Notes: generated from the letters alone by a model not told the origin. A DNA stretch of 52,500 nt from Planctomycetota bacterium (GCA_038059695.1 JBBTIZ010000011.1:1-52500); one strand, 5' to 3'; positions 5,279 to 40,741 are shown, counted from the stretch's first letter. Numbers and translations: made by a program.

Positions 5279-6082
5279 TCATTGTTTGTGGTTATCCAAG
5301 AAATTATAAATTTCATTTATCGGCACAACCCCAGCCATTGTGGTGACCAGTTGTCCATTGTAAACCTTAACCCATACCGCTATACCAATGACTTCATATG
5401 TCCGGGCGTCGTAGACAGGTCCACCTGAATTTCCTGGAAGTATGGGAGCGGAAATCTCGTAACATGAACCACTGAAGGCACTGAGGCACCCTGAAGAAGG
5501 CCGGGGCGGAAGACCCAAGGAGCATCCAACCGCCCATATAGGAGTAAATAGATACGGAGTATAATTCTGAGGCGCTAATTTTGCTTTTGTCACAGAGCCA
5601 CAGAGGCCACTGAGAAGAGCCAGGTCTTTTGCAGTATCTGTTATAACTACAGTTGCTTGTATTTCTTTTGTTACAGGATAAAAGAACTCTATTGTTACAC
5701 TGGATTCATCCTGGACGACATGTGCTGCAGTTAAAATATATATCTGTTCTGTGTTTTCAGTGTCTTCTGTGGTGAATACTACTCCTGAACCCGTCGAGCA
5801 TCCCGCAGTTATTCTTACTGTTGGATATAGAAGTTTCTCATATTCATCCTGATATGGATGCCTTGGTTTTTCAGGCGCCTTTATTATTACTATTTCTGTC
5901 TCTGTGGTCTCAGTGTCTCTGTGGTAAAAACTCGTCCCCAGGAGAACTATCAGTGCAATCCCTAATATCTGCGTTAATCTGCGTACCATAACCCACCATC
6001 CTTTCTTTATGGAGACGGTTGGCCTCTGCGGGCTCTGTGCCTCAGTGGCTAATCTTTTGTTTCTCCATAAGGAGGGGGTCAT
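5279..6082 (-). CDS. Membrane-anchored trypsin-like serine protease
   Basis: LTAAHV, DLALL and GNSGGP catalytic triad motifs; N-terminal hydrophobic helix; start uncertain. Confidence 0.85.
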   Translation of the reverse strand: MTPSLWRNKRLATEAQSPQRPTVSIKKGWWVMVRRLTQILGIALIVLLGTSFYHRDTETTETEIVIIKAPEKPRHPYQDEYEKLLYPTVRITAGCSTGSGVVFTTEDTENTEQIYILTAAHVVQDESSVTIEFFYPVTKEIQATVVITDTAKDLALLSGLCGSVTKAKLAPQNYTPYLFTPIWAVGCSLGLPPRPSSGCLSAFSGSCYEISAPILPGNSGGPVYDARTYEVIGIAVWVKVYNGQLVTTMAGVVPINEIYNFLDNHKQ

Positions 6083-6261
6083 ATGAACCCTTTTCCTATA
6101 AATCTGAGGCGAGTATTTTCGCTATTTTGCCATATTTATGAGGGAATATAAGGGGTTAAAGAAAATGCAAAAATCCGGGCAGGCCAAAAACGCAGGACTC
6201 GTTTTCCTCTAAGTGAGGGGGATAGGGGGTAGTACCCCACCCTAGCACCCTAAGGCCGGAC

Positions 6262-6535
6262 AGATAGCCTGATTTATCAGGGCATATAGCCGAAATGATT
6301 AGGTCAGATAGCCCGATTAGTCAGGCAGGATAGCCGAAATGATTAGGTTAGATAGTCCGATTAGCCGGGCCATATAGCCGAAATGATTAGGTTAGATAGC
6401 CCGATTGATTAGGTCAGATAGTCCGGTTGATTAGGTCAGATAGCCTGATTAGTCGGGCAGGATAGCCGAAATGATTAGGTCAGGTAGTCGGTCTGGTTGG
6501 GCCAGATAGTCTGATTAGTTGGGTCAGATAGCCGG
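6262..6535. repeat. Degenerate tandem array, 22-bp period, 12 full units plus a partial unit
   Basis: Units like AGATAGCCGAAATGATTAGGTC start every 22 bp from 6262 to 6526. Confidence 0.92.
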
Positions 6536-12914: not shown

Positions 12915-13032
12915 GTGCCAGAGGGACACTTCCCACCGCCGGAATCCCTTTACTTTCCTATCCCGCGTGTCTTGTGCCAGAGGGACACTTCCCACCGCCG
13001 GAATCCCTTTACTTTCCTATCCCGCGTGTCTT
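12915..13032. repeat. Exact 59-bp tandem duplication containing the RAYT end
   Basis: 12915-12973 equals 12974-13032. Confidence 0.9.
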
Positions 13033-13748
13033 TCTTGTTATAAAATCCCTTCCCAGTAACTCCGCCATTCGGTTTACGAATCTCTTATCACCTATGGGCT
13101 TGCCTGTTTTTGTCGCCTTCCGGATTAAATTCGTCTCGGATTCTTCCGCTTCTGCTTTGATTGTCTTAAGATACTCCTCCCGTTCGCCCTCGTCAAATAA
13201 ATCCTCGGTTAATACATCATCTTTAATCCCTTTAATGTGCGCCACCGCGCTGGAATACGGGTAATCCTCTATTTCCTTTACTATCCGGGCTCGTTTCGGA
13301 TTCCGCTCAATGTACCGGGCCACGACCCATAAATACGGCTCTTCATCTATAATACAAGAATGAAAACGGCTTTCCCATAATCGCCCCGTCCTTTTATATC
13401 GCCTGTTAATGTATTGCGTATAAGACAAACTCACCCCCTGCATCATCTTGGCAAATGATTCTTCTTTACCGGGACGAACCAAGAGGTGAACATGGTTAGT
13501 CATCAGGCAATAAGCCAGGATAGAGACATCCCATCTGGTGGCGTATTCCTTTAGCAGGTCTAAATACCTAGCGCGTGTTTCCTGGGCAAAGAAGACCTTT
13601 TGCTTGTTATTACCTCTTTGAATGACATGATGAGGAAAATCCACGGCGACCGCTCTGGCAACTCTCGGCATAAGAGGTACTTTATAAAAACTATGTCTTA
13701 TGTGTCAAGTAAATTAAGTGTTGTAGCCGGTGGGAAGTGTCCCTCTGG
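12977..13748 (-). mobile_element. RAYT element bounded by 21-bp inverted repeats
   Basis: CCAGAGGGACACTTCCCACCG (12977-12997) / CGGTGGGAAGTGTCCCTCTGG (13728-13748). Confidence 0.8.
13009..13671 (-). CDS. REP-associated tyrosine transposase (Y1 HUH)
   Basis: HHVIQRGNN, YCLMTNHVHLL (HUH), YIERNP, YPYSS motifs. Confidence 0.92.
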   Translation of the reverse strand: MPRVARAVAVDFPHHVIQRGNNKQKVFFAQETRARYLDLLKEYATRWDVSILAYCLMTNHVHLLVRPGKEESFAKMMQGVSLSYTQYINRRYKRTGRLWESRFHSCIIDEEPYLWVVARYIERNPKRARIVKEIEDYPYSSAVAHIKGIKDDVLTEDLFDEGEREEYLKTIKAEAEESETNLIRKATKTGKPIGDKRFVNRMAELLGRDFITRKTRGIGK

Positions 13749-37893: not shown

Positions 37894-39336
37894 ATGCATA
37901 ATATCGTCGCGATTGTCGGCCGGCCCAATGTCGGCAAATCCACCCTGTTCAACGCCCTGGCCCGGCGCCGGATGGCCATCGTGGATGCCATTGCCGGCAC
38001 CACCCGGGACCGCATCTCCACCCAGGTCACCCGGGATAATCTCACCGTGGAATTGATTGACACGGGCGGATTCGAGCCCAAATCGCAGCAGCAATTCTGG
38101 GCCGAGATTCACCAGCAGATAAACGCCGCCCTGGCTGAAGCCGACCTGATTATCTTCCTGGCCGACATCCGCACCGGCGTCACTAACCTGGAATTGGAAA
38201 TCAGCAAGGCACTGCACCATCAAACCAAACCCGTAATCCTGTGCATCAACAAAGCCGATACCCTGCAATTGGAAAAGGGCTTAAGTGAGTTCCGCAAACT
38301 CGGCTGGGGCGAGCCCCTGGCTGTCTCCGCCCTGCAGAAAAGGGGATTGGACGAACTCTGGGAAAAACTAAAGCGCTTTGAGCCCGCAACGCAACGCCCA
38401 CTCCCTCCTCCCGCTGAAGCGGGATACGGGATAAGAGCCGGTAATCCCTCCGGAAAACCGGCTCTAATATCCATTGCCATTGCCGGCAAGCGCAACGTGG
38501 GCAAATCCACCCTGGTCAATAATCTGGCCCATGAGGAACGCACCATCGTCAGCGAGATACCCGGCACCACCCGGGATGCTATTGACGTCCTGTTTGAGAA
38601 AGACGGCCGGAAATTTATCGCTATTGACACGGCCGGCGTGCTCAGGAAAAGTAAACTAAAAGACGCCGTGGAAATCTACAGCCAGCAGAGAACCGAATCA
38701 GCCATCCGGCGGGCCGATGTGGTGCTCTTTATGCTGGATGCCCGGGATAAAATCTCCGAGGTGGACAAGAAAATCGCCAATTCCATTACGGAAAACTACA
38801 AACCCTGCGTCATTGCGGTCAATAAATGGGACCTGGTGGCCAAAAACACCTTGTCCGGCGAATACCAGGCCTATCTGAATACGGCGCTGACGTCCCTGAA
38901 TTTTGCGCCCATTGTCTTCATCTCGGCCAAGACCGGGTTTAATGTTGACTCCATCGTCCAGATGAGCCAGGAACTCTATAGGCAGGTCGGCGTAACCATC
39001 CCCACTCCGATTCTGAACAAGGTGGCCGAAAAACTAAAGACATCCTTGCCGGTGGCGCATCGGGGCGCGCCGATTCCCAAGATATACTACGTGGCCCAGA
39101 CCGGCTCGTTCCCGCCCACCATCACCCTGATGACAAACAGCCGCGCCCTGTTCAGCGACCAGGCCCTGCGCTATATCCAACAACAGTTGCGCAAACTCCT
39201 GCCCATTTACGGCGTAAATATCAGCGAAGTGCCTATCAATATCCTGCTCAAAAGCAAGAGCCCGAAGAAAACCAAACGGGGACTCCAAAAAGACCCTAAA
39301 GCGGCCATCTCGGCCGGTAGGCACGGCAGGCCGTAA
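37894..39336 (+). CDS. der: Ribosome biogenesis GTPase Der
   Basis: Two G domains: GRPNVGKS/GKRNVGKS, GTTRD, DTGG/DTAG, NKAD/NKWD. Confidence 0.95.
   Translation: MHNIVAIVGRPNVGKSTLFNALARRRMAIVDAIAGTTRDRISTQVTRDNLTVELIDTGGFEPKSQQQFWAEIHQQINAALAEADLIIFLADIRTGVTNLELEISKALHHQTKPVILCINKADTLQLEKGLSEFRKLGWGEPLAVSALQKRGLDELWEKLKRFEPATQRPLPPPAEAGYGIRAGNPSGKPALISIAIAGKRNVGKSTLVNNLAHEERTIVSEIPGTTRDAIDVLFEKDGRKFIAIDTAGVLRKSKLKDAVEIYSQQRTESAIRRADVVLFMLDARDKISEVDKKIANSITENYKPCVIAVNKWDLVAKNTLSGEYQAYLNTALTSLNFAPIVFISAKTGFNVDSIVQMSQELYRQVGVTIPTPILNKVAEKLKTSLPVAHRGAPIPKIYYVAQTGSFPPTITLMTNSRALFSDQALRYIQQQLRKLLPIYGVNISEVPINILLKSKSPKKTKRGLQKDPKAAISAGRHGRP
38382..38467 (+). repeat. TAA-punctuated double-hairpin element, copy H, in frame within der
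   Basis: CGGGA TAA GAGCCGG TAA TCCCTCCGGA AAA CCGGCTC TAA. Confidence 0.8.
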
Positions 39337-39414
39337 AAATCCCGGCGGGTAGCAACTGCGCAATTCCCATTTTTCTTACCCATCTAAATCAGCGGTGTTA
39401 TAATCCCTGGCATT

Positions 39415-39603
39415 ATGACAACGCCAGCATCTGTAACCTGTAGGATTTGCGGCAACGCCGGCCCAAACAAGGCCTATCTGGTAAAGGAAATGCTCCTGGG
39501 CACCAGAGATGAATTCGAATACTTTGAGTGCACGAACTGCGGCTGTCTCCAGTTATATAATACGACAGAACTAACTGGTGTGCGGGCTGCTGTCGGAGGT
39601 TAA
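39415..39603 (+). pseudogene. Truncated class I SAM methyltransferase (N-terminal zinc ribbon only)
   Basis: CRICGN..KEMLLGTRDEFEYFECTNCGCLQ, then an early stop. Confidence 0.65.
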
Positions 39604-39611
39604 TTTTTTGA

Positions 39612-40091
39612 CTATGGTATCTCAAATTCACGCCAGTATAACTTTTCCTGTTCTGGTAAACGCTCAAACTGATTACGGGTTAACATTAAGACCTTCTCGC
39701 CATAAGGTAAAGTCCGCTCGTGATAACGAACATAAGCCGTGGCGCCCGGTCTTCCCGGAATATCCCTGAAGATAAGCCAGCCGCCGCCTTTGGGCTCTTT
39801 CTGGTGCGTGTACTTAACAGACGGTTCATTATACCTCAGGAGAATCTCCGGCTTGAAATAATATGAAACCGGATTGGCAATGGTCAGATAGTAATCCTTT
39901 ACTTCCGCCACCCTGAAACGATACGTCTGGCCGACTTTATTATAAGGCAGTTCACCCCTTTTGATAATCCGGTAAAGGGTGCGTAAACTTATTCTTAACA
40001 GCATACATACCTCATCAGAGGTGAGTAATTCCTGGGGGTGTTTACTAAAGAGTTCGGTAAATTTAATGATGGTTTTCTTCTTCTTTGGCAT
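39612..40091 (-). CDS. Excisionase/BldC-like HTH_17 DNA-binding protein with an extra C-terminal domain
   Basis: LLTSDEVCMLLRISLRTLYRIIKRGELPYNKVGQTYRF. Confidence 0.85.
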   Translation of the reverse strand: MPKKKKTIIKFTELFSKHPQELLTSDEVCMLLRISLRTLYRIIKRGELPYNKVGQTYRFRVAEVKDYYLTIANPVSYYFKPEILLRYNEPSVKYTHQKEPKGGGWLIFRDIPGRPGATAYVRYHERTLPYGEKVLMLTRNQFERLPEQEKLYWREFEIP

Positions 40092-40354
40092 ATGACATCC
40101 TATGACAACTCCTGACAGAACTCATCCTGTTAATACCGCTTTATGCGGTTAAAATACCATTTTTTAGGCCAAAAAGTCAAGGTTTTGCGCCTTGTGACTT
40201 ACCCTTGACCTAATGAATTATCTGACAAGTTAAGGTGATAAAATTCCTCTAACATCTTTAAATTACTAATGATATATCAAAAACATTTAACCTTTTATGC
40301 CAGATAAATTACTGATACAAAAATGTCCCCCCGGTGGGGGATAGGGTACCCCCT

Positions 40355-40689
40355 CATATCCCTTAGCCCCGAGAGTCATATCCCTTAGCGCCGGCAGTCA
40401 TAGCCCTTAGGGCCAAGAGTCATACACCTTATAGCCAATAGTCATACCCATTGTCCCCGAGAGCCATACCCTCTAACCCCAAGAAGCATATCCCTTAGCG
40501 CCAAGAATCATAGCCGTTAGCCCCAAGAGTCATACGCCTCAGCCCCAAGAGTCATACCCCTTAGCCCCAAGAGTCATACTCCTTAGCCCCAAGAGTCATA
40601 CTCCTTAGCCCCGAGAGTCATACGCCTCAGTCCCAAGAATCATACCCTCTATCGCCGAAAGGCATACACGTTAGAGCCGCTATGCATAC
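40355..40689. repeat. Degenerate tandem array, 22-bp period, 15 full units plus a partial unit
   Basis: Consensus about CATACCCCTTAGCCCCAAGAGT; CATA recurs every 22 bp from 40355 to 40685. Confidence 0.95.
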
Positions 40690-40741
40690 CTGCGATGAAT
40701 TTAATGGACAGGACTTGAAGTCCTATGTTATAATAAATTAT

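Follow-up and report, generated by a model that had tools for sequence, protein, structure and literature searches.

The iterons of plasmids R6K and pPS10 are 22 bp long, and proteins that bind centromeres often control their own expression through repeats that precede their genes. Among winged-helix proteins, BldC binds 9-bp direct rather than inverted repeats head-to-tail and forms cooperative multimers of variable length (PMC5859096). RdfS assembles into helical filaments and controls its own promoter (PMC11963761). The plasmids of planctomycetes are reported to have RPA-family initiators, and iterons are mentioned only beside those (bioRxiv 10.1101/2024.01.22.576637). A full-text search of the literature listed no account of an HTH gene with 22-bp arrays in Planctomycetes; the gene-array cassette analysed below has apparently not yet been described.

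The cassette was found in a Planctomycetota assembly (G000) of 1.27 Mb in 92 contigs, which is 55% complete and has a GC content of 48.5%. The window, i.e., the whole stretch of 52,500 nucleotides that was analysed, is contig C11 of this assembly. The features follow one another in the order der, a 62-aa ORF, an HTH_17 gene on the minus strand, an AT-rich spacer, a G/C-run, a 22-bp array and a UbiA-family gene (Table 1). The synteny of der and the UbiA-family gene in relatives, to which an earlier note on this DNA had pointed as a check, defines the insertion. In G001, a genome of the same genus that is 96% complete, the gap between the two genes is only 97 bp and empty, and likeness with it restarts at GATGAATTTAAT (40694), immediately past the partial 16th unit of the array. 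In G002, also of the same genus, der is followed at once by the HTH gene (89% identical protein), the same spacer, the G/C-run and a 16-unit array; then come ~2.3 kb with a 557-aa secreted-type ORF, and finally the UbiA gene. The DNA that separates der from the UbiA gene in G000 is inserted, and its site is variable; the term mini-island used in the earlier note is apt. The segment common to G000 and G002 starts ~14 nt past the HTH stop codon and finishes with the array; thus the portable unit consists of gene, spacer, G/C-run and array, ~1.1 kb in all. The same note had called the locus a minimal or remnant form. The first word holds, but the second was dropped since the orthologous cassette of G002 has the identical minimal make-up, which makes the G000 locus the complete conserved form.

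Table 1. Features at and around the inserted cassette on contig C11 (positions are those of the window)
Feature	Position	Strand	Remarks
der	37894-39336		Pfam MMR_HSR1 and KH_dom-like
Inserted mini-island	39396..40693		between der and the UbiA-family gene; left edge approximate
Class I SAM methyltransferase stump	39415-39603	+	62-aa ORF; homologous part only 39415-39555 (47 codons, two CxxC pairs)
HTH gene	39612-40091	-	159 aa; winged helix ~20-71 and family-specific beta-rich C-domain ~77-154
Candidate operator	40093..40117		three TGACA direct repeats in 10-bp steps (40093, 40103, 40113), between predicted promoter and start codon
Predicted sigma-70-like promoter of the HTH gene	40151..40180	-	TTGACT, 18 nt, TATTTT; consensus match only
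AT-rich block	40262..40297		TCTCTAACATCTTTAAATTACTAATGATATATCAAAAA; near-identical in G002 though flanks differ
G/C-run 'leader'	40327..40353		CCCCCCGGTGGGGGATAGGGTACCCCC; can fold into two overlapping hairpins; kept in G002
22-bp array	40354..40693	+	consensus TCATACCCCTTAGCCCCAAGAG; begins right after the leader, ends at the right junction of the island
UbiA-family gene	ORF from 40682, likely start 40742, to 41626		

The surroundings of the cassette vary as well. The 3' tail of der from ~39264 (39264-39395) differs among strains, and a 21-residue extension present in G000 is absent in G001 and G002. Public contigs from three runs (X1, X5 and X8) branch off the window sequence, two of them after 39311 and one after 39281; in the contigs that branch after 39311, within the der tail, the new sequence opens with a leader-like G-run. 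The UbiA and DUF362 genes are direct neighbours in G000 and G001, and a PMT_2 glycosyltransferase gene is inserted between them in G002 (L041 10611-11873). All of the region from der to DUF362 is a hot spot.

At the left end of the island, the truncated methyltransferase reported earlier was recognized as a stump whose residues 1-47 are 87% identical to residues 1-47 of a 327-aa protein (P0003), the likeness breaking off at 39555. The longer protein belongs to the precomputed families Methyltransf_11/12/23/25/31, and the 62-aa ORF has no Pfam match of its own. The remainder of the methyltransferase was not found elsewhere in the 55% complete G000 assembly, and the 62-aa stump found no match but itself in 41 related genomes.

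The second gene of the island is the HTH_17 gene that the earlier note had named. Its product matches Pfam HTH_17 (PF12728) with an E value of 7e-13 (49.1 bits, cut-off 27) and TIGR01764 'excise' with 47.9 bits (cut-off 28.8), and so carries the HTH_17/excisionase domain. An AlphaFold2 model (pLDDT 83.5) consists of a winged helix and a beta-rich domain. The N-domain superimposes on the BldC structure with a Z score of 6.8 (rmsd 1.3 A over 51 residues, 31-36% identity); it also matches Pukovnik Xis, a transposon excisionase, RdfS, the DNA-binding domain of pSK1 Par and RacA, with Z scores of 6.6-6.7 for the Xis/RDF structures and 5.3 for the centromere-binding domain of pSK1 Par. The C-domain gave weak KA1-like structural matches (Z ~5) and no usable lead in the ESM Atlas. 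Prediction of a homodimer from two copies and the whole-family alignment scored 0.00 against a mark of 0.42, which is no answer either way.

The family is rare: a profile search of 1.84 billion representative proteins returned 38 matches at E <=1e-30, and, by our own count, ~55 of the best 150 profile matches span both domains. A protein search of 61 related genomes found a match in 18, including 8 of the 9 of the same family. The only full paralogue in G000 is at C25:1331-1849, giving two family genes (C11 and C25) in this genome. Eight relatives are longer, 289-334 aa, with three consecutive HTH_17 domains before the family C-domain. These triple-domain relatives exceed the NCBIfam cut-off for the MADS defence protein MAD1 only because the domain is tripled; the 159-aa protein itself scores 36.4 bits with NF047737 against a cut-off of 80, and its likeness to MAD1 in PADLOC and NCBIfam is confined to the HTH domain, so that this assignment was rejected. 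Fusions of HTH_17 with a LexA-like Peptidase_S24 domain, seen at two loci, are a separate family. One of them is on contig C4 of G000 (C4:15500-20500), where a period-22 array lies just upstream of the gene and a restriction endonuclease gene adjoins.

Likeness to BldC is one of fold, through the winged helix. BldC has 68 residues and no second domain, whereas here 159 residues include a beta-rich domain of ~80 residues. The repeats of BldC are 9 bp long and lie within promoters in two to four copies, whereas those at C11 are 22 bp long and stand in 15-16 copies behind a G/C-run. Membership in the BldC family was rejected on account of the second domain and of NF033787, which was not listed at E <=0.01; on a triple-HTH relative this model scores 53 bits against a cut-off of 77. 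The Xis/RDF proteins (lambda-type Xis, Pukovnik Xis, RdfS) share with the C11 protein the HTH_17 and TIGR01764 domain as well as the structural match, but the C11 island has no integrase gene and its repeats are far more numerous and exactly phased. An Xis-integrase pair was rejected, the genes of the island being the methyltransferase stump and the HTH gene only.

The array was measured in two ways. TRF reports a period of 22 with 13.4 copies, 80% matches and no indels over 40354-40647. By direct count, CATA recurs at 16 sites in exact 22-bp steps from 40355 to 40685, which amounts to 15 complete units (40354-40683) followed by a partial one, the 16th, ending at 40693. The perfectly phased units and the invariant CATA described previously are thereby confirmed, with one partial unit more, and exact phasing over 16 units is far beyond chance. 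The invariant columns are C2 A3 T4 A5, C8, C16 C17 and A21. Single units agree with the consensus at 13-22 of the 22 positions, the worst ones being at the far end. The unit consensus of G002 differs at 6 of 22 positions, all of them columns that also vary within arrays; the invariant columns equal the G002 majority base, with T4 alternating with C in the G002 units. Confinement of the differences to variable columns, together with the invariant ones being kept, points to selection on a few contacts per unit. In a contig of an independent study (run X6), the array is the same but for an additional unit after 40381. A CRISPR array was rejected, as the units abut without spacers and Rfam gives no match. 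Neither a tRNA nor a tmRNA was found in the window.

Between gene and array lies a control region. Its GC content is 32% over 40092-40326 and 26% over 40200-40326, compared with 48.5% for the genome, in agreement with the AT-rich stretch noted earlier. Both hexamers of the predicted promoter are kept in G002, and so is the TGACA block; none of 200 shuffles of the spacer yields such a triple. Of 24 family loci, 7, that of the C25 paralogue among them, have exact 5-mer triples at 9-11-bp steps, of various sequences, between gene and array; such triples arise in at most 3 of 200 shuffles per locus. The promoter repeats have no general sequence in common with the array units. Shared 6-mers between promoter region and units number 94 versus 49, an excess that comes from four loci whose degenerate units extend into the gap; most loci share none, and the C11 locus shares one (TATGAC). 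The AT-rich block could be a promoter reading into the array, and by our reading boxes of the ATAT(A/G)(T/A)CA type precede the leader in other family loci. The leader described in the earlier note, GGGGGATAGGGTACCCC, is at 40336-40352. The G/C-run sits between the control region and the array, the second half of it resembles the unit core (our own reading), and a near-identical copy of the leader heads a degenerate array at C18:9539.

A region of this build invites comparison with plasmid replication and partition cassettes, and the earlier note had suggested an iteron origin. Such cassettes (R6K, pPS10, pSK1 Par, pSK41 ParR) have direct repeats of ~20-22 bp, an AT-rich stretch and a small DNA-binding gene. 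The C11 locus has all three: 16 units of 22 bp, a length within the 17-22 bp of iterons, beside the part of the spacer with 26% GC, and a winged helix that resembles the pSK1 Par domain. It could then be what is left of an integrated plasmid module, either an iteron origin and its initiator or a centromere together with the protein that binds it. But the cassette is chromosomal, and the same cassette occupies the same chromosomal site in a sister species (G002). No Rep-family initiator was found in the island, no match to four DnaA-box patterns in 40092-40330, and no partition NTPase between der and the UbiA gene, on which ground a centromere cassette was rejected. Iterons are expected at one or few sites per replicon, whereas the 1.27 Mb contain 28 period-22 arrays, mostly beside ordinary chromosomal genes. 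Planctomycete plasmids are reported to rely on the RPA-family initiators mentioned above. Since Rep gene, DnaA box and partition ATPase are missing and the copies are too many, with tens of them per genome, descent from a plasmid origin or centromere is highly improbable, and the iteron origin was given up.

The pairing of HTH gene and array recurs in other genomes. The family set comprised 32 genes encoding winged helix and C-domain from 10 other Planctomycetota genomes; four lie at a contig edge where they could not be judged, leaving 28 testable. TRF finds a period-22 array upstream of the start codon in 24 of these 28. Among the four misses, two loci have a G/C-run with degenerate or longer-period repeats and two have nothing. 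Both family genes of G000 also have a period-22 array. HTH_17-only loci from other phyla had none (0/71) in a control set that was searched with a narrower family alignment (A3), for which the subgroup of the C11 locus was not the search seed; one of the 71 has a 7-bp microsatellite, called period 21 too by TRF. Co-occurrence of the family with period-22 arrays, named as a check in the earlier note, is upheld, and so is linkage of the two outside this genome, the lack of which would, according to that note, have refuted its view. The units are oriented as well: in an unsupervised fit of 26 gene-linked units, 23 fell on the same strand relative to the gene. The fit has a weak common core, GGGGATATACCCC, with 10.6 bits compared with 8.2 +/- 0.23 in 20 shuffles, and every array has its own unit sequence. 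Past the arrays of two loci, L005 and L007, from two genera, a palindrome of the type AATGT-N-GACGTC-N-ACATT is present in two or three copies and may be an operator for another factor.

The best single explanation of these data, held tentatively, is a phased protein-DNA filament with self-regulation. It draws on the order and polarity kept over proteins that are only 25-30% identical, on the BldC/Xis fold and on the position-specific constraint within the units; binding itself we infer from fold and linkage. The nucleoprotein assembly site of the earlier note agrees with this tentatively preferred reading. According to it, the locus would be a complete copy of a small portable cassette of a Planctomycetota group, its gene read away from the AT-rich control region. 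The protein would dock at the G/C-run and the first unit and polymerize head-to-tail on the direct repeats, with a single protomer or a small oligomer for every 22 bp, or two helical turns, to build a one-sided filament. The same or a related protein would shut off its own gene through the three TGACA repeats. Where acquired DNA ends, the filament would probably form a boundary or a roadblock rather than a replication origin. Several observations count against a filament: the abundance of arrays without a gene (see below), the unlikeness of promoter repeats and units, the weakness of the common core, the lack of an informative structural match for the C-domain, the polarity, which would suit a transcript just as well, and the lack of covariation beyond close kin. 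Covariation of protein and unit gave a Mantel r of 0.185 (P 0.005), driven by two close pairs, and an r of 0.06 for pairs below 60% identity. The latter value lends no support to locus-specific recognition, and the covariation is put down to recent common descent.

The arrays of G000 are far more numerous than its family genes. TRF on the whole assembly gave 55 merged arrays with a period of 21, 22 or multiples: 28 of period 22, 22 of period 21 and 5 of multiples. G/C-run clusters were found next to 16 of the 28 period-22 arrays; the corresponding figure is 1 of 22 for period-21 arrays and 1.2% for random 80-nt windows, an enrichment that sets period-22 arrays with a G/C-run apart as a separate class. 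Several of the period-21 arrays, which lack the G/C-run, stand in adjoining pairs or triplets (C17, C37, C39, C40), and some are coding or simple repeats. The other array of the window, at 6217-6534, has a period of 22 with a 44-bp super-period (two alternating unit types) and the leader GGGGGATAGGG, a sequence that occurs only 6 times in 1.27 Mb and precedes both window arrays. The two were said to belong to one element class, and period and leader bear this out; the likeness does not extend to an HTH gene, for the 6.2-kb array has, on its leader side, the start of a gene for a trypsin-like peptidase (5279-6082, minus strand) instead. In all, 26 of the 28 period-22 arrays have no adjacent family gene. 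Thus the arrays need no protein in cis.

Most of the gene-less arrays have a core gene on one side and accessory genes on the other. Core neighbours include the lysyl-, aspartyl- and isoleucyl-tRNA synthetases, Ddl, CarA, MiaB and ComEC; accessory neighbours include three Eco57I-type methylases, restriction nucleases and a ThsB-like TIR protein. At the flanks of the aspartyl-, lysyl- and isoleucyl-tRNA synthetase genes, five relatives offer 15 orthologous places; a period-22 array is present at none of them and a period-21 array at one. In G001, for example, the aspartyl-tRNA synthetase gene and the next gene are a few bases apart, whereas G000 has ~550 bp of leader, array and flank there. Judged by these flanks, the three arrays are recent. 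Small families of near-identical elements also exist. C90:33209-33821, C44 and C84 have a common ~85-bp head, an array of 8.5, 3.5 and 9.5 units, respectively, and a C-run tail; likeness is 88-90% among C84, C23 and C37 and 91% between C43 and C20.

Such a distribution would be expected if the arrays came first, i.e., if the G/C-run with its 22-bp array were a selfish or structural element that spreads alone, like a miniature transposon or satellite. The HTH gene would then ride with some copies, or the array would be a cis-regulatory region for another factor or through DNA shape. The many arrays without a nearby family gene, the near-identical families, the empty orthologous places and the difference in unit number between populations all speak for this. 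There is likeness to MITEs and to REP/BIME elements: gene-less arrays are short non-coding insertions between core genes, absent in relatives, and two Y1-transposase genes adjoin repeat arrays in G000. The body of the element is different, however, being made of head-to-tail 22-bp units capped by a G/C-run, with no palindrome. For the arrays, neither terminal inverted repeats nor target duplications were found, and no transposase was identified. Since unit sequences differ among elements, simple copying of one master element is excluded. A spreading array also fails to explain why an array is kept in one position and polarity at 24 of 28 family genes. With these points on either side, arrays that came first are an unlikely explanation, though one to be taken seriously.

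Two further gene types were seen near repeats in this genome. The Y1 transposase gene of the window, IS200-like (13009-13671, Pfam Y1_Tnp), overlaps a perfect 59-bp duplication (12915-13032), and its paralogue on C90 (C90:32265-33700, known by BLAST only) adjoins a period-21 and a period-22 array. A family of 268-330-aa proteins without a Pfam match is encoded at C68:2176-3072, C90:23799-24791 and C19:42159-42965; two of these genes start directly beside a G/C-run and array, so that there may be a second type of gene-bearing cassette.

The fixed polarity also keeps alive a third reading, in which the array is transcribed, from the AT-rich block or by upstream read-through, and its RNA acts as a sponge or is processed into 22-nt units; the G/C-run would be a 5' hairpin, or a terminator on the other strand. 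The polarity of leader and array fits a transcript equally well. When scored with an orientation matrix trained only on gene-linked arrays of other genomes, 10 of the 15 one-sided-leader arrays of G000 are leader-first, 2 are opposite and 3 ambiguous, and in 11 of 16 gene-less arrays, by our own reading, the leader comes after the 3' end of a gene on its strand. A kept block lies 30-90 nt ahead of the leader. RNA read from the plus strand of the C11 array folds less than shuffled versions of it do (z +2.1), a property that sponge RNAs for single-strand binders may have, and RNA of the minus strand folds more (z -3.0). In the minus-strand direction, the leader scores as a hairpin with a T-run, which is terminator-like. 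These opposite readings of the leader on the two strands leave the direction of a transcript undefined. Moreover, the window has no match to any Rfam family, no processing signal was recognized, unit composition varies from G-rich to C-rich on the leader-first strand, and the partner protein has a fold for binding double-stranded DNA. A repeat RNA is accordingly regarded as quite improbable.

Features of the filament and of the spreading arrays might be combined. The arrays would be a lineage-specific, self-spreading DNA element and the winged-helix family its dedicated binder, acting in trans from the gene-bearing cassettes and coating dozens of arrays between core genes and newly acquired, often defence, genes. 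A 'satellite plus binding protein' system of this kind, insulating or silencing the borders of foreign DNA or anchoring the chromosome, would have no described counterpart; we consider it a rather doubtful conjecture.

The present analysis newly adds the empty site in a sister genome, the split between period-21 and period-22 classes, the evidence for recent insertion and the negative covariation result. Several arrays sit at contig ends; breaking assemblies and varying in unit number between populations, the arrays matter for the assembling and comparing of such genomes. The cassette, at ~1.1 kb, is small enough for direct tests in a laboratory host. If the protein does coat the arrays, it would constitute a modular system of natural origin, with a very small cassette that assembles a long protein-DNA filament in exact phase, and the binding mode of BldC and Xis would be extended from two to four sites to at least 15. 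It would also offer a handle on how acquired DNA is marked or insulated in these uncultivated Planctomycetota.
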